Shown: in pieces, positions 39,588-52,201 of the stretch
Numbering within the stretch: position 1 is the stretch's first letter
Layout: each line of letters starts with the position of its first letter
Virus record (IMG/VR): IMGVR_UViG_2913147268_000005
Reading direction: 5' to 3' (one strand)
Origin: a virus
Taxonomy: Duplodnaviria; Heunggongvirae; Uroviricota; Caudoviricetes
Length of the DNA: 64,000 bases
Program-made: the position numbers and the translations under genes
The notes under the pieces: model-generated
The model's database searches: none
Told to the model about the DNA's origin: nothing
Seen by the model: only the letters and a program-made list of their open reading frames with translations

Positions 39588-42410
39588 ATGACGGCAGAGT
39601 ACCTCAGGGACTGGCAACAACCGCGCCACGCAGTGGGGCGTGAAGGAACGGGGATCCCCGCTCCTGAATCCGCGCTTTCCTCCTGGCTGGATGCCTACCG
39701 GGCAGAGAACGAGCGCCGCCAGGAAATGGCTGATGCGGCGTTCTCAGCCACGCCGCTGGGCAACCTGATTAATAAAAGCCTGGACGCACAGGAAAAACAG
39801 GACAAAACCATCACACTGGCAGGAGACGCCAGAAAACAGGCACGTGGCGCGGTGGATGAAGCCATGGCCTCGCTGCGCCTGCTGCCGTCCTATCTGCGCG
39901 ATCCGCTTATTCGCCACCTCTCCTTCCTGCGCAAAAAACAGGAAGCCGATCGCCGGAAAGGCAAAAAGAGCTGGCAGGCGGAACGCTATGCACGCGGAAC
40001 CCTGCGCAAAATATTCGAACGTCTGGATAGCACTGACGGACGCTGGCTGACACCGGGTTATCGCTCCCTTGCCGGACGCGAACGCCTGGACGATTTGCTT
40101 TACCTGCCGCAGCTCAACAAACACCAGATACAGACGCTGGCCACCATGACGGCGGCGATGTTCAGCAGCACCTTCGAAAAACTCTGCGATGGCTTTGGCG
40201 CGACCGATGGCGAGCTGACCATGGATGTAACCCTGAAGGCGTATCAGATGCTGGCCCGCATGGCGTTACACCTGCACGCCATGCCTCCACATTATGACGC
40301 ACTGACAACAGACAAAGACCGGAGGAACGAACCGGACACGGAGCTGCTGCCGGGCGCAATCCTTCGCCTGACCTGTGCGGAATGGTGGAAACGCAAACTG
40401 TGGCTGTTACGTTGCGAGTGGAGAGAAGAACAACTCCGCGCCGCCTGTCTGGTTTCCAGAAAAACATCACCCTATCTGAGCCAGGACGCGTTAAGCGAGT
40501 TTCGCGCACAGCGCGAGAAAACACGCGATTTCCTGAAAAGTTTCATGCTGGAAAATGAAGACGGGTTCACGATTGATCTCGAGACAGTGTATTACGCGGG
40601 AGTAAGTAACCCGGTTCACCGTAAGGCAGAAATGATGGCCACCATGAAGGGACTGGAACTTCTGGCCGAAGCCCGTGGCGACAAAGCGGTGTTTCTGACT
40701 GTCACCTGCCCGTCAAAATACCACGCCACAACGGAGAACGGTCATCCGAATCCCAAATGGAACGGGGCCACAATGCGCGACTCCAGCGATTACCTGGTTA
40801 ACACGTTTTTTGCGGCGGTCCGCAAAAAACTGAACCGCGACGGCCTGCGCTGGTATGGCATCCGCACGGTGGAGCCTCATCATGACGGCACCGTGCACTG
40901 GCATATGATGGTCTTTGCACATCCGGAAGAAATCGACACCATTGTGTCCCATACCCGCGATATTGCCATTCAGGAAGACCGCCACGAGCTGGGCAATGAT
41001 ATTACTCCGCGCTTTAAGGTGGAGTATGTCGACGGCTCAAAAGGCACGCCAACCAGCTACATCGCCACCTACATCGGAAAGAACCTGGACAGCCGCGCCG
41101 TGGATGGCATCGACCCGAAAACGGGCAAGCCACGCGTGGACCACGAAACCGGAAAATCAATGGCCGAGAGCGTGGAGCGCGCCATCGGCTGGGCGCGCCT
41201 TCACCGGGTCCGTCAGTTCCAGTTCTTTGGCATCCCCTCCCGTCAGGTGTGGCGTGAACTGCGCCGCCTTGCCAGCCAGATGGCACGCAATCCGGAAGGC
41301 CCGCAACGGCTGAAAGATGATGCAATGGATGCGGTACTCGCTGCCGCCGATGCCGGGTGTTTTGCCACCTACATTGAAAAACAGGGTGGCGTGCTTGTTC
41401 CACGCAAGGACTACCTGATTCGCACCGCCTACGACCTCGCAGATGAGCTGAACGATTACGGCGAACAGAGCGTACAGATTTACGGGATCTGGTCACCACT
41501 CATCGGGGAATCCTCCCGTGTGTGCACGCATCCGGATAACTGGAAGCTGGTAAGACGTAAACCGGAAGCGGAAGACAGCGCCCGCGAAAATGGTTTTGAC
41601 CTTCAGGGCGGCCCTGCCGCCCCTTGGACTCGTGGCAATAACTGTCCCCGTGTACAGGAAACGGACAACAACGGGACAGAACAGCCGGAAGAACGGCCAG
41701 CACCGTGGCCGCAGCTCCCTGACGGCGTTGAAGTGAACGAATGGATGCGCTCACTGAAACGACACGAACGCCGGGCGCTGATGCGTTCGCTTCGTGACAA
41801 ACAGGCAAAAAACAGCAGCGATGAAATGCAGAGCTGGACACAGAGCCGCAAACAGCAGCGGCCTTTGCCTGATAACCACGAATTACTCGCTAAAGAATGG
41901 CGGGAGTCTGCTGAATCTCTCGGCCTGCATATCGGTGAACAACAGATGCAGCACCTGTTACGGGGCGGCAGTCTGTACGTTGACGGCAGCATCATTGCAC
42001 CGCAGGGATTTGAAATTGTACGCAAACCGGATACCCGCCCGGACAGCCGAATCACGCAGCTCTGGCAGCGCCTGAGCCGTAATCATGGCGTAAGCAGCAC
42101 GGAGATCCGCCATAACCCGGTCGCCAGCTATCTGGCACAGCTGGGGGCATCAGACCCTGAAGCCGCCGCACGCCTGGCATCCACACTTCAGCAGGGCCAG
42201 AACACCATGAAAACACCCGTTACCGTGCTTTCTGACATGCTGCGCGCCATCCGCGACGCAGAGCACGCACAGAGAATCAGTGAAACCACTGAACGCGCCA
42301 GCCGCAAAGCAGACCTGCTGCGGGGTGGCCTGACCAGTGGAAACAAAAAACAGACAGAAACGGGACTTACGAATCCCGTAAATGAGCAAAAAACGCGCAG
42401 CGATATATGA
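39588..42410 (+). CDS. Rolling-circle replication endonuclease, P2 gpA family
   Basis: 940 aa; HUH-type motif (GTVHWHMMVF) and paired tyrosines (SYIATYIGK). Confidence 0.8.
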   Translation: MTAEYLRDWQQPRHAVGREGTGIPAPESALSSWLDAYRAENERRQEMADAAFSATPLGNLINKSLDAQEKQDKTITLAGDARKQARGAVDEAMASLRLLPSYLRDPLIRHLSFLRKKQEADRRKGKKSWQAERYARGTLRKIFERLDSTDGRWLTPGYRSLAGRERLDDLLYLPQLNKHQIQTLATMTAAMFSSTFEKLCDGFGATDGELTMDVTLKAYQMLARMALHLHAMPPHYDALTTDKDRRNEPDTELLPGAILRLTCAEWWKRKLWLLRCEWREEQLRAACLVSRKTSPYLSQDALSEFRAQREKTRDFLKSFMLENEDGFTIDLETVYYAGVSNPVHRKAEMMATMKGLELLAEARGDKAVFLTVTCPSKYHATTENGHPNPKWNGATMRDSSDYLVNTFFAAVRKKLNRDGLRWYGIRTVEPHHDGTVHWHMMVFAHPEEIDTIVSHTRDIAIQEDRHELGNDITPRFKVEYVDGSKGTPTSYIATYIGKNLDSRAVDGIDPKTGKPRVDHETGKSMAESVERAIGWARLHRVRQFQFFGIPSRQVWRELRRLASQMARNPEGPQRLKDDAMDAVLAAADAGCFATYIEKQGGVLVPRKDYLIRTAYDLADELNDYGEQSVQIYGIWSPLIGESSRVCTHPDNWKLVRRKPEAEDSARENGFDLQGGPAAPWTRGNNCPRVQETDNNGTEQPEERPAPWPQLPDGVEVNEWMRSLKRHERRALMRSLRDKQAKNSSDEMQSWTQSRKQQRPLPDNHELLAKEWRESAESLGLHIGEQQMQHLLRGGSLYVDGSIIAPQGFEIVRKPDTRPDSRITQLWQRLSRNHGVSSTEIRHNPVASYLAQLGASDPEAAARLASTLQQGQNTMKTPVTVLSDMLRAIRDAEHAQRISETTERASRKADLLRGGLTSGNKKQTETGLTNPVNEQKTRSDI

Positions 42411-42486: not shown

Positions 42487-43446
42487 ATGAAAATTTGTAT
42501 CGACGACGGCTCCACCAACATCAAGCTGGCATGGACTGAGAATGGCGAACGCCGCAACGCCATCAGCCCGAACAGCTTCAAGTCGGAATGGTCTGCGCCG
42601 TTCGGTGGCATGCAGCCCGCGAACTACATGCTTGATGGCGTGCGCTATGGTTTTGATCCGGTTAGCGATCGCTTTGTCCAGACGACCGACACGCAATACC
42701 AGTACAGCGATGTGAATGTAATCGCCATTCATCACGCGCTGGTCAAATCAGGCATCACGCCACAGGAGGTGGATGTGGTTGTCACCCTGCCACTGAGCGA
42801 GTATTTCGACACAAACGCACAGCCGGACATGGCCAACATCAACCGCAAAAAAGCGAACGTTATGCGCCCGGTGGAATACCAGAACGGCGAAGCATTCACT
42901 ATCCGTAACGTGCGGGTTATGCCTGAATCCATTCCGGCTGGCTTTAAAGCACTGGCTGACATGAGTCCGTTTGAATCCCTGCTGATTGTGGATTTAGGCG
43001 GAACCACGCTGGATGTGGCAAAGGTTCAAGGGCAACTGGCAGGTATCAGCCAGGTGTTTTGCGATCCACACGTAGGCGTTTCCCTGATGGCCGATGCCGT
43101 ACTGTCGGTGATGGCCACTAACGGTATGCGCACCAGTCACCACATCGCCAATACCATTATCGAACATCGCCATGATGAAGCCTGGCTGCGCCAGCACATC
43201 CACAATGACGCGCATTACGCCAGCCTGATGGCGGTTATTCGTGAAAAGGAAGAAACACTGAAACAACGCGTGATCCGCGCGCTGGCGGTTTTTTCGGGTT
43301 ACGGGCGGGTGATGGTTGTCGGTGGAGGGGCGGAGATTGTGGCACCCGCTATCCGCGAAGTCTGCGGAGTTAATGCGACTTTCATCGCGGACGGGGTGCC
43401 ACAGTTTGCTCTGGTTAATGGGCTGTACGCAATGGACAAGGAGTAA
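42487..43446 (+). CDS. ParM/StbA-like actin-fold ATPase
   Basis: Phosphate-1 (KICIDDGSTNIKLAW) and phosphate-2 (LIVDLGGTTLDVA) motifs of the actin/Hsp70 fold; 319 aa. Confidence 0.7.
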   Translation: MKICIDDGSTNIKLAWTENGERRNAISPNSFKSEWSAPFGGMQPANYMLDGVRYGFDPVSDRFVQTTDTQYQYSDVNVIAIHHALVKSGITPQEVDVVVTLPLSEYFDTNAQPDMANINRKKANVMRPVEYQNGEAFTIRNVRVMPESIPAGFKALADMSPFESLLIVDLGGTTLDVAKVQGQLAGISQVFCDPHVGVSLMADAVLSVMATNGMRTSHHIANTIIEHRHDEAWLRQHIHNDAHYASLMAVIREKEETLKQRVIRALAVFSGYGRVMVVGGGAEIVAPAIREVCGVNATFIADGVPQFALVNGLYAMDKE

Positions 43447-43450
43447 ACCA

Positions 43451-43765
43451 ATGACGACACCAACCAGACGGATAAGTTTCTATCTGAAGCCCGCCGCCGT
43501 CAAGAGTGAACAGGAGGCGTGCAATTACCTCGATAGCCTGCCAGCCTCCGAACGCAGCCGCGCGCAACGCGCGGCCTTTCTGGCTGGGCTAGCGCTCATA
43601 AAGCGCAACCCAGCATTTGCCTACTGGATGGCCGAATGGCCAGAGGACAACCTCCCCTTCAATACCGTTAGCATCAAGGAAACATACCAGGATAATCAGC
43701 CTAGCGGAGTTGAATGCAATTTTTATAAAATAAAAAAGAATATTCAGACCTTATTCCCAGAATAA
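43451..43765 (+). CDS. Small protein downstream of the ParM-like gene (ParR-like adaptor candidate)
   Basis: ATG at 43451 behind a GGAGTAAACC RBS; N-terminal RISFYL beta-strand-like start; assignment is positional only. Confidence 0.4.
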   Translation: MTTPTRRISFYLKPAAVKSEQEACNYLDSLPASERSRAQRAAFLAGLALIKRNPAFAYWMAEWPEDNLPFNTVSIKETYQDNQPSGVECNFYKIKKNIQTLFPE

Positions 43766-43848
43766 TCTGATAATTGTATGTGAACTAATAAAATACAGAC
43801 CAACACATCATTCTGGCACCCTTGCTAACAGGGTGCCAATGTTTCAAA

Positions 43849-44691
43849 TCATGATGAAATTGCCGAAGTTTTTTTATCGTGCTGAAGTACCGCAAATGCC
43901 ATTAAAACCTCAAGAGAATAGCGGCGATAATACTTAACAAAACCATAATAAAATACTCGGGATGCAGCAATACAAAACAAGAGAAGAAAACAAAAAGGTA
44001 ACAGTCTGATATTTATATCTATTAAAAAGGATAGAAGGAGCAGGAACATAAGCAACCAGACTGAAGCGAGAAAAACAAATGTAATGTTTCTACAAAAACC
44101 ATACAAAGCAACATAGTTTTGCATTTTCACCTGATGATTTTTAGAATGTTCATACACATAATGATAAGCAAGGCGAAAAAGATCGCCCCTCAAGCCCTTA
44201 CGTCGATATAGCGTAGATACAGAAAAAACATTTATATAACCATCTCGTATTTGCGGCCAAAAGACTTTAATAAGTATAGAATGCAGTGTGGTTTTATGAT
44301 GTTCTGCTTTATCAAAAGCTGATACAGGAAATAAAAAAACTCCACGAATAAAATTAACTATACTGAACTTAGTATTATGTCGTTTTATTTTCAGGGAGCT
44401 TCTTTTAGAAAACAGATAAATTGAAGGATACCCAAGTTTACTGTTCATGTATTTTTCAATTAAACAGGATGATAGAATAGATATGAAGTGACCTGAAATA
44501 TATGATAGAACGATTAATACCACATATATAAATACACTTATTATTTCTTTATATTTCAGGATATGGTTAAGAATACCTTCTATATAAACAGGGTTAATTT
44601 CAATAGAAAACAAAAAAAGGATAAACAGGAATAACCCACCTGGAATTAGATAGCCCAAAAAGTCATAAAATGAAAACGGATTCTGTGTCAC
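43849..44691 (-). CDS. Multi-pass membrane protein (280 aa), AT-rich cargo
   Basis: GTG start behind an AGGGGGAAGT RBS; two N-terminal and two C-terminal hydrophobic helices around a ~120-aa loop; second gene of a two-gene operon. Confidence 0.55.
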   Translation of the reverse strand: MTQNPFSFYDFLGYLIPGGLFLFILFLFSIEINPVYIEGILNHILKYKEIISVFIYVVLIVLSYISGHFISILSSCLIEKYMNSKLGYPSIYLFSKRSSLKIKRHNTKFSIVNFIRGVFLFPVSAFDKAEHHKTTLHSILIKVFWPQIRDGYINVFSVSTLYRRKGLRGDLFRLAYHYVYEHSKNHQVKMQNYVALYGFCRNITFVFLASVWLLMFLLLLSFLIDINIRLLPFCFLLLFCIAASRVFYYGFVKYYRRYSLEVLMAFAVLQHDKKTSAISS

Positions 44692-44730
44692 ACTTCCCCC
44701 TGTGTTACTTGTAAATTAAAGGGTAAAACA

Positions 44731-45228
44731 TTATTTGTTTTTCCGTAAAGGATTAGCTTTCCATCTTCTTACTAACCATTCGAATTCTTGATATGTAGTA
44801 TCCGAATTAATGCTTTCTCTGATTGCTTTAATTAATGGCTCGGCAATATCATATGTCTCTACAACTGTTGTGTAAGATGTTCTTTTTATCATTTTTTCAT
44901 CATAAATACCTTCACGAATACTTACAGCAACTCGCTCGTAAAAATTTAAAATATATTGAAATTTTCGACGCTCGGCCATTTCTTCATCTGTTATTATGCA
45001 ACCATCACAAGGAAAAACATAAGAACGAAATGATTTGCCTGAACGATGCACTTGTTTCAGGGTATGCAATGACTCTATATATTGCATATCTTGCCGACTC
45101 TCAAAAAGAAAGTTGGCCGTTTGAGTTTTTTTTGCGGTACGCACATTGTAGATAATGGTTCCAATGGCAACCAAAACGCCAAGCAGAACAATAGCATTGC
45201 TGATGATTTGTAGTGTTATTGGGTTCAT
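44731..45228 (-). CDS. N-terminally membrane-anchored protein (165 aa), AT-rich cargo
   Basis: One N-terminal TM helix (LQIISNAIVLLGVLVAIGTIIY) then a soluble domain containing CDGC; first gene of the operon. Confidence 0.55.
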   Translation of the reverse strand: MNPITLQIISNAIVLLGVLVAIGTIIYNVRTAKKTQTANFLFESRQDMQYIESLHTLKQVHRSGKSFRSYVFPCDGCIITDEEMAERRKFQYILNFYERVAVSIREGIYDEKMIKRTSYTTVVETYDIAEPLIKAIRESINSDTTYQEFEWLVRRWKANPLRKNK

Positions 45229-45248
45229 CCTATTTCATCCATAAAAAA

Positions 45249-45275
45249 GGCGGGGAGCAAATCCCCGCCTCATTA
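45249..45275 (-). terminator. Hairpin (GGCGGGGA/TCCCCGCC) plus U6 on the minus strand, about 15 nt upstream of the 44731-45228 RBS
   Basis: Perfect 8-bp stem with 5-nt loop; T-run on the minus strand. Confidence 0.55.
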
Positions 45276-45426
45276 GAGGTCAACGTAGCTTAGAAACCAT
45301 CAAATTCATCATACATTTTTTTCATATCAACCCCCTCATAGAAATCATAACCACGTTTTGTGGTTTTTGTGACGTATAAACTACATCAAAGGCAAGCCAC
45401 GGTCAAATATATAGGCATGCTTACCT

Positions 45427-45453
45427 GCACAAAAGTGCACAAATTTGCACAAT
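45427..45453. promoter_or_regulatory. Three direct TGCACAA repeats with 10-bp phasing
   Basis: TGCACAAaagTGCACAAattTGCACAA read on the plus strand; a TATATT -10-like hexamer lies downstream on the minus strand. Confidence 0.5.
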
Positions 45454-45951
45454 TTTTTTGAACGACTTTTTACCCTTCCGGCCCGCATGGCGGCTGGATC
45501 CGTCAAGGATCCGTGCGTGCACAAAAAAACGCGCTTTTTCTGCGCGCAGGTGACGGGGGAACAGCCCGCGTTTCAGGGGGTAAATAGCATTCCCTGAACG
45601 ATGTCGCAGAGACACAACAGAATGGCCATATTTCTCACGCTGAGCATGAAAAAGGCGTGAGGGCTTTTGATTTGATGGGGTGAAAGGTAAGGCCGTCAAA
45701 ATCGCACTGAGGCAGCGAGAACATGCAGTCAACGCGGTGGAATTGCGTAAGAGTCTGACCGTCGATGGTGGCGATAAACTGGAAGGCGTCGTGAAATTAT
45801 CTGATTGATACAGGAGCTGGAGAGCCGGGGCATAAATTTTTTATGCCCCGGCGAAGCAGCAGACAAGCGAAGCGCGTCAGCGATACGGCACCTTGCCGAC
45901 CATACTTCATAAGTGCAAAATACGAGCAAAGAAATCAATGGAGGCTGTCTT

Positions 45952-46476
45952 ATGGTCATTAATTACAAGCAGTTAAGAGAAAAACGGGAGCAGGTAAAGG
46001 AGAGCTTTCGCCGCAATGAAGATCTGACCCCGCTTGTACGCCTTGCCCAGGGCATTGTTGATGCTTATGAAATCTCGCTGGAGCTGCCATCACAGACCTG
46101 GACAGATAGCGACGGTAATCGCCAGCATTACGTTTCATGCGGACTGGAAGCAGCCGAAGGATTTCGCAGAATGCCTTTATCCCAGATCCCTGCCGCTACC
46201 CCCAAAGCACGGGGCAGCAATGATGAGCGAAAACTGACTTTTAGTATTGAAACGGTGGTTGACGACACACCTGGCGAAGTCGCGTTCGTGCACACTCCTG
46301 TTTCGATCGCAATGTATAACGATGAAATACAGGTTCGCGTTAATAATAATATCGTGCCACTTAAAGAAGGTAATTCACCCTACACCACCGTTTGTGAAGC
46401 CATTCAATATTACGTTCTCTCTGAAATTGATAATCTCAAGCCTGACGGCACCCAGAAAATGGTTCAACTCTGGTAA
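45952..46476 (+). CDS. Hypothetical protein (174 aa)
   Basis: ATG at 45952 with GGAGG RBS 7 nt upstream; followed directly by a strong terminator hairpin. Confidence 0.5.
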   Translation: MVINYKQLREKREQVKESFRRNEDLTPLVRLAQGIVDAYEISLELPSQTWTDSDGNRQHYVSCGLEAAEGFRRMPLSQIPAATPKARGSNDERKLTFSIETVVDDTPGEVAFVHTPVSIAMYNDEIQVRVNNNIVPLKEGNSPYTTVCEAIQYYVLSEIDNLKPDGTQKMVQLW

Positions 46477-46483
46477 AAAGGAC

Positions 46484-46510
46484 AGCCCCATCACGGGGCT
46501 GTTTTTTCAT
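46484..46510. terminator. Bidirectional intrinsic terminator (CAGCCCC-ATCAC-GGGGCTG plus T6)
   Basis: Perfect 7-bp stem flanked by an A-run and a T-run between two convergent genes. Confidence 0.6.
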
Positions 46511-47537
46511 CAAGAAGAGCATAAGAGTTAAAACGGATCACCTCTTCGCCAAGCCAGTCATTGATGTGCTTCATAGCCTCCATAACGGGCATCAGCTCGT
46601 TAATTGCGTAAACCCGCGCTGCCTTCTCCACATCGCCAAACGCACTTTTTTCGCCCGGCATCGCCCCCATCAGTTGCGGCGGAACGCGGTGCGCAGCCAG
46701 CACATCATCACGGGATGCCGCCTTAACATTCATGAATTCATCTTTTGCGGTGATCTGCTGGAACGGCAAAATTTGCACCCCCTCTTTGCCCCCGTTGGGC
46801 GCATGAATGAGCACGTTTTTAAACGCACCACCACCACGTGCCCCCTGTAGCGTTTCTTTCAGGGAGTCCATGCTTTCGCGGTTTACCTGCGCTGCACCGA
46901 TGTAGATGATGCACCCGGCGTGGGATCCGTTGTCGTAGTACAGTTTTCTGAACATGTCCGCCGAATGAGAAAGGCTGGCCGAGAGTAATGCGCCAAGATA
47001 TTCCGGCATGCCGTAGATTTCCTGGTTAATATCCGGATTCATCAGGTGGCACACTTTGCCAGGACGAAACTGAAACGCGTCCTTGCCATCCTGCACATAC
47101 CACCATGATTCAAGATCGCTTCCGCGTCGCATGTATTTCGCCAGGGCGTGCCGTAATTTAAGCGGTTCGCCGAGCATATTGCTTCGAAGCTCAAGGAATG
47201 CGTTACCGAACACAAACCAGTCCAGCGCCAGCGCCGAGAAATCCTGCCGGGAAAGCAGCGGGTGCGGGATGTAGCAACCGAGTAATACATTGCGCTTAAA
47301 GTAAAGCGCAGACTGATGCCAGGACGTTTGCCGGGCTGCTCTTGCCAGACCGTACCAGTCCACCGGGGTTTCATACCACCGCCCGTTATCAGCACAGTAC
47401 ATATTGTCCAGCAGGTCATGCCCGGTCAGGCGATAAGGACCATCAAATGTGAATGCACTGAGCGATGATTCTTTCCTGAGCGCATCAGCGAGATCAATGC
47501 GTGAACTCATGCGCACTTTTTTATTTTTTCTGCTCAT
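46491..47537 (-). CDS. Portal protein (P2 gpQ-like)
   Basis: 348 aa; adjacent to and divergent from the scaffold/capsid genes, as in P2. Confidence 0.85.
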   Translation of the reverse strand: MSRKNKKVRMSSRIDLADALRKESSLSAFTFDGPYRLTGHDLLDNMYCADNGRWYETPVDWYGLARAARQTSWHQSALYFKRNVLLGCYIPHPLLSRQDFSALALDWFVFGNAFLELRSNMLGEPLKLRHALAKYMRRGSDLESWWYVQDGKDAFQFRPGKVCHLMNPDINQEIYGMPEYLGALLSASLSHSADMFRKLYYDNGSHAGCIIYIGAAQVNRESMDSLKETLQGARGGGAFKNVLIHAPNGGKEGVQILPFQQITAKDEFMNVKAASRDDVLAAHRVPPQLMGAMPGEKSAFGDVEKAARVYAINELMPVMEAMKHINDWLGEEVIRFNSYALLDEKTAP

Positions 47538-49288
47538 CAGAACTCCATAACCATGAAACGCTCGTTTTCTCCTTCGCCGCCAATTGGTTCGTTAATGACA
47601 GCAAGCATGGTTGCCCACGCAAGGTCGCCGTGGCTGATCCCCCTCGCGCGGTCCGTTTCGTAAGTGATAAAGCCGCCCGGTGTTTTCACCTTACGCACGG
47701 CGTTAAAGGCCGCGACCAGCTCGCGTTCGGCGCGATCGTATTCCCACCGCCCGGCACGCATTATTTGCAGCATTTTCAGTACCAGCGACCGTTTTGATGA
47801 CAGCGTGAAGGTGTACGGAATAGCAGCAGGGAAAAACCGCTTCACTATCTGATAAACAGCCTCCCCGTTCCCGCCCGTCACATCAATGCCGATGTGTTCC
47901 ACGTTGTAGCGACACGTGAACTCTTCAATGACTCTGGCCTGTTCTTCAAACTCCAGCCCCTGAACGCGTCGCGTCTCCACCGTTCGAAAACGGCCGCCAG
48001 GAACAGCCGGAGGAACCACCACGGACACAGCGCCGCTGTCGCCGTTGCCACTACTGCCGTTTGCGTCATACCCAATCCATACCGGACGATTCCCCATCGG
48101 GCGGGGAGCAAAAGGTTTCCAGTCTTTCCAGTCGTCGTATCCGTCAACACCGCAGCCAATCAGGATATTCAGGTTAAATGCCGATTCCCCTTCGCGGACA
48201 AACTCACACATATAGAGATTGAGGAACTCGTCTTCGGTGTTTTCATCACGAATTTCGTCGATATCGGTGTGTTTCCAGCCGTGATTAACCACATCTTCCA
48301 GCGTGACAATTTGCCGCCACGTCCGGTCAGGGCAGATAAGCCCATTATGCAGCGTTTTCCAGTCCACAGAAAAACGCTGGCGTTTATGCGAGGCCTTTTT
48401 CTCGTTCCAGCGGTCGCCGTTCCAGTAGGCGTATGCCTCGTGCGTTTCGGTGGATGGCGTGGAGAAGTAGGTGCGCCGCAGTCCGCTGAGGGTTGCCATA
48501 GCGCCAGCCACCTTGCGCAGTTCAGCAAAGCGACTGACCCAGAAAAATTCATCAAAATAAAAATTGCCCGTATAGGACTGTGCCGACGCAGCAGAAGTGC
48601 CGAGAAAATGCAGCTCTGCGCCGTTGGAGAGGATGATTTTATCGCCCCCTTTCAGCTCCACATCAACTTCAGCCGCGGCCTTCTGAATAATGCTTTTAAA
48701 CTGGAACGCCTGACGACGCGACGCAGACAAAAAAATCTGGTTACGCTGGTAAGGTTGCGCCACATCGTCACGCAGCGCCATCAGCAGTGCTTCCTGTGCA
48801 AAATACCAGGTCGCCCCAATCTGTCGGGATTTCAGGATCATCCTGTTACGTATCCCGGCTTCCCTGCAAAGGGTCAGGGAGTCAAACCAGCCCCGCTGAT
48901 GCCACTCCAGCCTGCTGATGATTTTTTCCCGCAGTGCGGCAATCTGTTCCGGCGTGAAATGATTTTTGAGTTTTTTCGCCCGGCCTTTCTTTCCTGCGGC
49001 CATCACATCCGGCTGGCCATCATGCAGCTTTTTAAGCTGCCGGGTCAGCAGGTCTATTTCCTTAAAGTCACCGCCTGTTTTATTCTGTTTTTCAGTAAGC
49101 TGGATGAGGCGCGCATCGATGGACTGCGTGACACGCTGCACGGGTGGCGTTTCATCCCACTGGTCACGTTTTTTCCACGCATAAATCGTGTTCGGGTTTA
49201 TTCCCATCAGACGTGATATTTCTGCGGGCGGATAACCCTGCCAGTAAAGTTGCCGCGCACGCTGGCGCACAAAAGCGTCCTGAATCAT
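47537..49288 (-). CDS. Terminase ATPase subunit (P2 gpP-like)
   Basis: 583 aa with N-terminal HTH-like segment (LYWQGYPPAEISRLMGINPNTIYAWKK); co-directional with the portal gene. Confidence 0.85.
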   Translation of the reverse strand: MIQDAFVRQRARQLYWQGYPPAEISRLMGINPNTIYAWKKRDQWDETPPVQRVTQSIDARLIQLTEKQNKTGGDFKEIDLLTRQLKKLHDGQPDVMAAGKKGRAKKLKNHFTPEQIAALREKIISRLEWHQRGWFDSLTLCREAGIRNRMILKSRQIGATWYFAQEALLMALRDDVAQPYQRNQIFLSASRRQAFQFKSIIQKAAAEVDVELKGGDKIILSNGAELHFLGTSAASAQSYTGNFYFDEFFWVSRFAELRKVAGAMATLSGLRRTYFSTPSTETHEAYAYWNGDRWNEKKASHKRQRFSVDWKTLHNGLICPDRTWRQIVTLEDVVNHGWKHTDIDEIRDENTEDEFLNLYMCEFVREGESAFNLNILIGCGVDGYDDWKDWKPFAPRPMGNRPVWIGYDANGSSGNGDSGAVSVVVPPAVPGGRFRTVETRRVQGLEFEEQARVIEEFTCRYNVEHIGIDVTGGNGEAVYQIVKRFFPAAIPYTFTLSSKRSLVLKMLQIMRAGRWEYDRAERELVAAFNAVRKVKTPGGFITYETDRARGISHGDLAWATMLAVINEPIGGEGENERFMVMEF

Positions 49289-51400: not shown

Positions 51401-52201
51401 ATGATTACTCCTGCACAACAACACTGGCAGAACGTGATGGCACAGCGCGCAGGCCGGGCGAATGAAGGTGTGGACCACGCCGCGTGTACCGCGCATGAAG
51501 AGGTGCTGTATCGTCTGCGTCTGGCACAGGCCAGGCTAAAGGCCATACAGGCCAGAAGCGCGAAAGCCGCCATCAAAAAAGAGTTGTTGCCGGACTTTTC
51601 CGGCTGGATTGAGGGAACGCTGGAGGCTGACGGCGGGCAACAGGACGAAGTAATTGCCACGCTGATGGTGTGGGCGATTGACTGCGGCGATCTTCCGCTG
51701 GCGCTGCGTATTGGTGCATATGTGGTCCGTCACAACCTCATCATGCCGGATAACTTTGGCCGTACTGCTGCCACGGTACTGACCGAAGAAATCTGCAACC
51801 CGGTACTGACGCAGGCTGGGACGGATGCCGACGCGGATTTATCCGCCTTTATCGAACCACTGGACACACTTTGGGAAATTATCGCCAACCAGGACATGCC
51901 GGACGAAGTGCGCGCCAAATTATGCAAGGCGTGTGCCTTTGCCCGTCGTGGCCTGACCGATGCAGACAACATGGCCTCATCACTGAAGCTGCTGCGCGAA
52001 GCGATGCACCTGAACCCGAACGCAGGTGTGAAACGCGAGATTGCAACCCTTTCCCGCGCCCTGAAAAAAGCCGATTCCGCAGCCGAACCAGAAGACGCCA
52101 GCGCACAGCAGGCGCAGGACGAAAGCAGCAAAAGTAAAAAGACAACGCGGAAGCCTGCAACACGAAAAACCACCGCGACGCAGAAGGCAAAGCGCGGTTA
52201 A
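51401..52201 (+). CDS. Terminase endonuclease/small subunit (P2 gpM-like)
   Basis: 266 aa with MPDEVRAKL motif and a basic C-terminal tail, following the capsid gene. Confidence 0.8.
   Translation: MITPAQQHWQNVMAQRAGRANEGVDHAACTAHEEVLYRLRLAQARLKAIQARSAKAAIKKELLPDFSGWIEGTLEADGGQQDEVIATLMVWAIDCGDLPLALRIGAYVVRHNLIMPDNFGRTAATVLTEEICNPVLTQAGTDADADLSAFIEPLDTLWEIIANQDMPDEVRAKLCKACAFARRGLTDADNMASSLKLLREAMHLNPNAGVKREIATLSRALKKADSAAEPEDASAQQAQDESSKSKKTTRKPATRKTTATQKAKRG

Follow-up and report, generated by a model that had tools for sequence, protein, structure and literature searches.

A phased TGCACAA array as a probable outer element of the cos site of P88-like phages, beside a separate read-through leader in the neighbouring cargo

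Introduction

The cos (DNA-packaging) site of the P2 phage family lies between a hotspot on the gpA side and the portal gene Q. P2 and the satellite P4 have a conserved cos core of 55 bp (Ziermann & Calendar 1990, as cited in PMC3931495, PMC5694545 and PMC9594776), P4 has only cos in common with P2 (PMC9122126, PMC9594776), and a defence hotspot is found next to cos, between gpA and gpQ (Rousset et al. 2022, PMC9122126). P2's own cargo in this hotspot is old and tin. The present work deals with the region of the same genomic position in a 64,000-nt stretch of viral DNA (Caudoviricetes; IMG/VR record IMGVR_UViG_2913147268_000005; hereafter the window), in which three TGCACAA heptamers and a leader hairpin precede a two-gene membrane operon on the minus strand. 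A first-pass annotation of this DNA considered the heptamers to be the site of a regulator that binds along one face of the helix and controls the operon. Our analysis assigns them instead, very probably, to the cos site of a P88-like member of the P2 family, as its outermost conserved element, and treats the leader of the operon as a separate read-through module.

Other packaging sites provide a frame for this comparison. In lambda, cosB (R3-I1-R2-R1, with gpNu1 and IHF) presents several short repeated sites in some 120 bp to one side of the nick, as the window does, and in both cases the repeats are presumed to anchor the terminase and to bend the DNA; lambda cosB needs bending by IHF. Nonetheless, the sequences and the terminase families of the two systems are unrelated, the P2-type terminase differs from that of lambda in acting on monomeric circles, the copies in the window are all direct and helically phased, and no IHF site was identified in the window's cos region. 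The P2-family phage phiCTX has annotated repeats flanking its cos (R3-R6, GenBank NC_003278), with a motif and a host other than those considered here. For the operon leader, the parallels are trpL, pheL, tnaC and speFL, in which a short, well-translated upstream open reading frame (uORF) and then a terminator precede a regulated gene; the leader described below has the same arrangement, its translation being predicted.

Results

The TGCACAA array and the cos module

The three exact TGCACAA copies are on the + strand at 45426-45432, 45436-45442 and 45446-45452, spaced exactly 10 bp apart as the first-pass annotation had stated, and their distance of 198 bp from the ATG of cargo gene 1 (45228) agrees with its estimate of about 200 bp. 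A fourth copy at 45518-45524, which that annotation overlooked, is separated from the distal block (ending at 45459) by a poorly conserved spacer of ~58 bp. All copies share one orientation, the distal three are in helical phase, and the distance from the last of these to the proximal copy is a constant 72 bp, about seven helical turns. The heptamer is not enriched across the window (11 copies versus 15.7 expected). A search for the array elsewhere, which had been proposed, shows that three exact heptamers in 10-bp phase occur a single time in the window and never in 200 block shuffles, and finds the array conserved in distant relatives.

To the right of the array, the window presents the same order of elements as the cos sites of P2, P4 and 186, namely a TGCA repeat with an A-run and a G+C-rich inverted repeat (together 45518-45547), followed by a related G+C-rich 19-mer. 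The P2 counterpart of the inverted repeat reads CCGCCCC-gtgaa-GCGGGCGG. The cohesive ends of P2, P4 and 186 have 19 nt. The 19-mer of the window, GGTGACGGGGGAACAGCCC, resembles in sequence the cohesive ends of P2 (GGCGAGGCGGGGAAAGCAC), RSA1 (GGTGAGGCGGGGTCCAAC; PMC5694545), AP3 (PMC5247547) and Smp131 (PMC3931495), and is conserved in all loci that bear the array. It is the putative cosN to which the distances given below refer.

The array marks an abrupt border of conservation. In megablast and blastn comparisons with P88-like phages that carry different cargo (P88, PhiR44_2, 520873, 500465-2 and 503458 among them), homology starts at 45426, the first base of the first heptamer. The same border is seen in 1139 of 5426 complete E. 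coli genomes, whose alignments to 45420-45580 begin at 45425-45427, and in a set of 43 loci, where ungapped identity is at the random level (0.26) in the 80 nt to the left of the array and reaches 0.68 in the 150-nt module. Everything to the left of the array is variable cargo of the P2 defence hotspot. The array is kept beside unrelated cargo, including cargo on the + strand whose terminators face it. Packaging would demand that the cos module be kept whole, and the module would thus serve as a fixed border on the right of the cos-proximal defence or cargo hotspot.

The geometry of the module is maintained over a wide range of hosts. An exact-pattern scan of one genome per species yielded about 25 Enterobacterales loci in Yokenella, Kluyvera, Erwinia, Pantoea, Mixta, Kosakonia, Citrobacter, Enterobacter, Brenneria, Klebsiella, Izhakiella, Arsenophonus and Salmonella, among other genera. 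Among the loci that could be scored, TGCACAA stands at -123/-113/-103/-31 from GGTGACGGGGGAACAGCCC in about 20 species, and a type found in Klebsiella, Brenneria and Yokenella, with GGCGAGGCGGGGGAGC as its cosN, has the heptamer at -121/-111/-101 and -38/-29. Between these elements, array-bearing loci have diverged in sequence; in Arsenophonus the heptamers are retained with diverged sequence between them, which is a phylogenetic footprint. The TGCAC core is exact across loci, and the A/T spacers vary (aag, tag, acg, aaa).

The same layout is found in phages with a different repeat. Measured from the annotated cohesive end, TGCAT occurs at -123, -111, -101 and -29 in P2 and at -124, -111, -101 and -29 in both P4 and 186; the positions are -120, -111, -101 and -29 in PSP3 and -129, -110, -100 and -29 in Ralstonia phage RSA1. 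The window and the P2/P4/186 group thus have in common TGCA-core repeats at -123/-124, -111 to -113, -101 to -103 and -29 to -31, whereas they differ in the repeat itself (TGCAT there, TGCACAA here), in cosN (GGCGAGGCGGGGAAAGCAC in P2) and in the proteins of the packaging machinery. The gpM of the window is 37% identical to P2 gpM by BLASTP local alignment and 36% by global alignment; over the TGCACAA lineage, identity to P2 is 32-36% for gpM, 45% for gpP and Q, and about 40% for N. In phiCTX, (T/C)GCAG repeats occupy comparable positions, with GCAG-core copies at about -109, -99, -82, -36 and -27; this layout is approximately superimposable at best. The switches of motif (TGCAT, TGCACAA, GCAG) track phage lineage, not host. 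Because the spacing to cosN is the same across TGCACAA and TGCAT phages, we assign the array to the distal repeat block of the P2-family cos. As such, the TGCACAA variant is an ordinary, poorly documented part of a known element.

By analogy with lambda cosB, the distal block is most likely a terminase recognition element. Copies in one orientation, in helical phase and at a constant distance are what one would expect where a multimeric DNA-binding protein wraps or loops the DNA beside a cleavage site. In such a model, the terminase would bind the TGCA-core repeats through its small subunit gpM or through the N-terminal helix-turn-helix (HTH) of the large subunit gpP; simultaneous binding of the distal block and the proximal copy would bend or wrap the DNA and position the nuclease on cosN, in the manner of gpNu1 at the R sites of lambda cosB.

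Several observations weigh against this assignment. Within the TGCACAA lineage the gpP HTH hardly varies, and it differs from that of P2 about as much as the rest of gpP does; the divergence of gpM and of this HTH between the two repeat types is no greater than that of portal or capsid, so co-variation does not identify the reader of the repeats. In the P88-like lineage the putative cosN is placed by similarity alone. The proposed end is not the first base of any public P88-like record; LR595891 starts 78 bp to the left of it. The accessible literature gives the 55-bp cos core only, which includes the proximal copy and excludes the distal block. A metagenome viral contig from IMG/VR (L068) has a ~95-bp deletion (~45395-45490) that removes the three distal heptamers together with the -35 of the cargo promoter and retains the proximal copy and cosN.

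Satellites that carry the module

P4 carries the distal repeat block in its TGCAT type, and the TGCACAA module is likewise common to phages and satellite-like elements. A family of the latter (L015, L023 and L033), to which L018 and L026/L030 are similar by their flanks, bears the TGCACAA module and encodes an integrase, an 889-residue Toprim primase, an Ash-family protein, two unknown proteins and a homologue of the P2-family capsid. Neither a portal nor a terminase is encoded in these three elements, which would depend on the terminase of a helper. The TGCACAA cos module is all that they share with P2-like phages. The similarity between a satellite-like element and the phage resident in the same Izhakiella genome (L035) runs from the first heptamer to about 10 bp past cosN. 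In E. coli we sought a P4-like satellite of the TGCACAA type, and the divergent match inspected (H140) was a Novemvirus-like phage. The major capsid homologue of the satellite-like elements is their own, has 432-468 residues and bears an N-terminal extension; a P4-like satellite that encodes its capsid is possible.

The leader of the cargo operon

The hairpin upstream of the operon has the form GAGGCGGGGA-tttgc-TCCCCGCCTT on the minus strand, followed by TTTTAT. Its perfect 8-bp G/C-rich core and its U-run are as the first-pass annotation described them, and both are conserved in distant relatives. With G-U and A-U pairs included the stem reaches 10 pairs (7 G-C), with a 5-nt loop and TTTTTTAT; the predicted energy is -18.9 kcal/mol. 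This conservation in distant relatives places the hairpin, like the array, far beyond chance. This canonical intrinsic terminator starts 18 nt after the stop codon of an 11-codon uORF, overlooked earlier, and its U-run ends 12 nt before the ATG of the DUF4760 gene (cargo gene 1).

A candidate sigma-70 promoter, TTGACC-17-TAGTTT, precedes the uORF. Its hexamer positions are kept in plasmid pCREC783_47k (TTGATA-17-TAGCTT), where the spacer sequence differs. A consensus scan misses this candidate, whose -10 matches TAnnnT only, and proposes instead GTCACA-18-TATGAT at 45373-45344. The TATATT that had been taken for a -10-like element is indeed present on the minus strand, at 45411-45406, but it adjoins the upstream side of the TTGACC -35 and is not a -10. 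The same scan returned no promoter in the 12 nt between the U-run and the DUF4760 ATG. As there is no room for a promoter at this place, expression of the operon needs read-through. Judged from the sequence, transcription can reach the downstream genes only by passing a strong terminator, itself conserved, which comes after a conserved uORF that is probably translated. The earlier claim that expression requires read-through thus holds, and is reinforced by conservation of the arrangement before distant DUF4760 genes; the inducible control that was deduced from it is conceivable. A permissive Rfam scan of 44900-46600 matched no family and gave sub-threshold, terminator-like matches to SorX, isrP and UptR.

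The uORF-terminator unit precedes DUF4760 genes of 47-78% identity in unrelated contexts. These are found in Citrobacter phage Shae_phiSM (78%; MKKVFDEFDGF), in Serratia (73%; MIKFDEFDGF), in Rahnella (66%; MEAMFDEYDWF), beside an integrase in Lelliottia (62%; MKKFDEFDGF), at a chromosomal site in Enterobacter sp. R4-368 (Enterobacter/Kosakonia-like, 59%; MKKCDEFDGF), on the Logan-assembly contig ERR12361518_334 (53%; MEKFDEYEGV), in Entomohabitans (52%; MRYSDEYEGL) and in another prophage type in Providencia (47%; MVNYIRDEFEGF). The loci (L010, L044, L069, L071, L072 and L075-L078) comprise prophages and chromosomal islets of many Enterobacterales. In ten loci the uORF has 10-12 codons and ends with the peptide motif D-E-[FY]-[DE]-[GW]-[FLV]-stop, preceded throughout by a strong Shine-Dalgarno sequence; its last six codons show 98 synonymous versus 68 non-synonymous differences. 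The gap from stop codon to hairpin is 16-18 nt in seven of the ten, a U-run follows the hairpin in seven of the ten homologous leaders, and in the eight loci whose stem could be placed with respect to the DUF4760 start, L075 not being among them, this start is 12-47 nt past the stem. In a comparison of seven pairs across nine loci, all 63 stem pairs are standard and six of the seven positions show GC/CG and GC/AT swaps, the stems being aligned on the loop, which is not proof of orthology.

Two observations concern the unit itself. The acidic and aromatic C-terminus of the uORF peptide loosely resembles the acidic tips of SSB-type proteins, a likeness that is speculative. The insertion sequence IS421 (IS4-like) is located inside the terminator hairpin, between GGCGGGGATTTGCTCCC and ATAAGCGC, in several ST131 (sequence type 131) and related genomes (H17-H19, L046, L058, L062 and L065); the insertion parts promoter and uORF from the DUF4760 operon.

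How the leader may work can be considered in two ways, which we hold to be about equally likely, namely as a cis-acting attenuator or as an independent small peptide or RNA gene. In either case, a transcript from the candidate promoter (about 45406-45378) would pass the translated 11-codon uORF and the terminator into the genes of DUF4760 and its membrane partner on the minus strand, and the membrane proteins would be made from read-through transcripts only, at a low and possibly conditional level. The linkage of the unit to DUF4760 in nine of ten loci of unrelated context, the constant spacing, and the conservation of the peptide up to its stop codon, which recalls arrest peptides of the TnaC type, favour the attenuator. 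The known leader-peptide attenuators nonetheless differ from this leader, which has no regulatory codon runs, has an intrinsic and not a Rho-dependent terminator, yielded no robust antiterminator and matches no Rfam family. When the 5' arm was blocked in constrained folding, only weak structures formed and no convincing alternative emerged as an antiterminator; the 3' arm pairs with the region of the uORF Shine-Dalgarno in four of nine loci, weakly so in the window (-9.8 versus -28.9 kcal/mol). Plasmid pCREC783_47k carries a free-standing promoter-uORF-terminator with no DUF4760 nearby. The failure to find a convincing antiterminator, the missing codon runs and this plasmid copy argue against the attenuator.

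These same three observations lend weight to a leader without any sensing, in which the hairpin terminates an independent gene for the 11-residue peptide or a ~125-nt RNA and the DUF4760 operon is expressed by constitutive leak-through. We consider this a serious contender that falls somewhat short of persuading us, as the tight linkage to DUF4760 and the near-constant gap from stop to hairpin are what a cis-acting leader would show. A more ambitious proposal appears to us rather doubtful. It combines a new leader-peptide switch, whose output is the hairpin, with a terminase recognition code of TGCA-core repeats for the whole P2 family. In its first part, a conserved nascent peptide of 10-12 residues, with DEF(D/E)G(F/L/V)-stop at its end, would respond to a cellular signal by stalling the ribosome or releasing it, candidate signals being phage-induced stress and membrane or translation status, and would thereby set terminator read-through and hence DUF4760 expression in prophages and small islands across the Enterobacterales. 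In its second part, the TGCACAA or TGCAT variant would decide which satellites a helper can package. Whichever account of its function applies, the uORF-terminator leader of DUF4760 cassettes is a more novel item than the repeats.

Prophage setting and cargo

The window belongs to a P88-like P2-family prophage (Xuanwuvirus, Peduoviridae) of E. coli ST131. Positions 43800-46500 are 100% identical to E. coli ST131 prophages and to phage vB_EcoM-705R2, and the identity of the prophage is supported by the gpA, ParM/ParR, cargo, portal Q and terminase P that the window encodes (Table 1). The interval 45229-46490 (1.26 kb) contains no backbone gene and holds the repeats, the hairpin and an optional open reading frame (45913-46476).

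Table 1. Features of the window around the cos module, in order of position
Feature	Position	Strand	Details
gpA, replication endonuclease	39588-42410	+	
ParM (StbA_N/ParM) and ParR-like Plasmid_stab_B protein	42487-43765	+	
Cargo gene 2, 280-residue multi-pass membrane protein	43849-44691	-	phrog_12528
Cargo gene 1, DUF4760 protein, N-terminal transmembrane helix	44731-45228	-	Pfam PF15956, E = 1.8e-34; phrog_2284 (function unknown)
Intrinsic terminator	45271-45241	-	stem-loop 45271-45247, U-run 45246-45241
Shine-Dalgarno and 11-codon uORF	45290-45337	-	GAGGGGG 45337-45331; ATG..TAA 45325-45290, MKKMYDEFDGF
Candidate sigma-70 cargo promoter	45378-45406	-	-35 TTGACC 45406-45401, 17-nt spacer, -10 TAGTTT 45383-45378
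Distal repeat block	45426-45459	+	TGCACAA x3, then T7 run
Proximal TGCACAA and A-run	45518-45528	+	-31 from putative cosN; counterpart of TGCATTAAAA, which opens the published P2/P4 55-bp core
G+C-rich inverted repeat	45529-45547	+	ACGCGC-tttttct-GCGCGC, directly before putative cosN
cosN-like 19-mer	45549-45567	+	GGTGACGGGGGAACAGCCC, putative cohesive-end sequence, by similarity
Portal Q	46491-47537	-	
gpP, large terminase	47537-49288	-	Terminase_5/HTH_23 at residues 6-63, Terminase_6N, Terminase_6C
gpM, small terminase	51401-52201	+	Phage_term_smal, E = 2.4e-37

The cargo is A+T-rich. For the DUF4760 protein PADLOC gives no matches, and the literature on this domain consists of one unrelated paper and essentially nothing otherwise. 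The gene of the 280-residue partner is specific to the cargo variant of the window, being absent at the other DUF4760 loci; its product has a weak PADLOC match (E = 1.1e-5) to the type VI-B CRISPR-associated membrane protein Csx27. In Novemvirus-like phages (L079 from E. coli AMR2684 and L008, phiT5282H) the cargo that directly adjoins the array is an AAA ATPase with an S8 peptidase, annotated as an FtsH-like and a 734-residue protein, and probably constitutes a defence system in the same hotspot.

The ParM/ParR pair is complete, of the R1 type (StbA/Plasmid_stab_B) and directly 3' of gpA, with 76 bp only upstream of parM for a centromere; its presence in a P2-like prophage may point to a plasmid-like phase, or to segregation of the phage DNA while it replicates. 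On the other side of cos, the optional reading frame encodes 187 residues on the + strand (phrog_5091, function unknown) and marks a second small variable spot between cos and portal Q: it is also present in PhiR44_2 and STEC2018-553, and is missing from P88 and P88_4B11, in which the match picks up again at the end of the portal gene. The same side contains a perfect 13-bp palindrome, GCCGGGGCATAAA-ttt-TTTATGCCCCGGC, at 45824-45852, which is kept in P88-like phages (L002, L010) and is followed by no U-run on either strand.

Discussion

The fixed distance to cosN, the base-precise border and the sharing with satellites place the array in the backbone of the phage, and the alternatives to terminase binding have to be judged against these observations. 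An array that lies within cos and acts there as intrinsically bent DNA, or by binding IHF or another architectural protein of the host, or a phage protein other than terminase, is improbable. Such a model draws on the A/T tract that follows each heptamer in helical phase, the last ending in the T7 run, on the precedent of IHF bending at lambda cosB, and on an IHF site annotated near cos in the phiCTX record. Against it, an exact G/C-containing TGCAC core with variable A/T spacers points to base-specific recognition rather than to curvature alone, and the switches among TGCAT, TGCACAA and GCAG follow the phage lineage rather than the host.

We regard as more improbable still the model of the first-pass annotation, in which the array is an operator for the DUF4760 membrane operon. 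The position invites it: the array stands upstream of the candidate cargo promoter, about 20 bp from its -35 and at roughly -55 to -81 from the predicted start, and the TGCAT block of P2 extends into the -35 region of the old-tin promoter, whose annotated starts (33424/33426) are about 150 bp from cosN. A protein bound to the repeats could therefore have a secondary effect on cargo transcription. However, the array is kept with unrelated cargo and with opposite-strand cargo that ends in array-facing terminators, satellites have it too, its spacing is constant relative to cosN and not to any promoter, and DUF4760 cassettes elsewhere carry the uORF leader without a TGCACAA array. The P2 segment 33424-33500 (L007) raises a separate point, that cargo promoters may habitually adjoin cos repeats and may be occluded when these are occupied.

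Least tenable is a centromere (parC) of the phage ParM/ParR: the prophage does encode both proteins with scant space upstream of parM, and R1 parC also consists of phased short direct repeats, yet arrays of the same geometry occur in phages without ParM/ParR between gpA and cos (phiT5282H, Klebsiella CP052639, L035, L079) and, in TGCAT form, in P2, 186 and P4, and the array of the window is 1.7 kb downstream of parR with variable cargo between, whereas iterons are normally upstream of parM.

Other candidates were tried and rejected. The TGT-N12-ACA dyad of an Ogr/Delta activator site is absent from the array. A Cox-box array does not fit: P2 and 186 have the repeats in common, although their Cox and Apl are different. 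The origin of replication of P2 lies inside gene A, not here. A weak + strand terminator (GTGCAC..TTGCAC followed by T7) is not general to the TGCAT lineages.

The assignment to cos has consequences for how these genomes are read. Annotation of about one fifth of all complete E. coli genomes would treat the intergenic repeat as part of the cos packaging signal of a P88-like prophage and not as a promoter operator. Its first heptamer provides a base-precise right-hand border of the cos-proximal defence hotspot, which helps the extraction of cargo. The layout from -123 to +19, conserved between E. coli and Ralstonia and present also in the satellite P4, points to a functional cos of about 150 bp and not 55 bp. 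The size of this unit matters for the design of P2/P4 cosmids and transducing particles, and for predicting helper-satellite pairs according to their TGCAT or TGCACAA type. The uORF-terminator leader, for its part, offers a handle on the expression of DUF4760, a widespread prophage-borne membrane protein.

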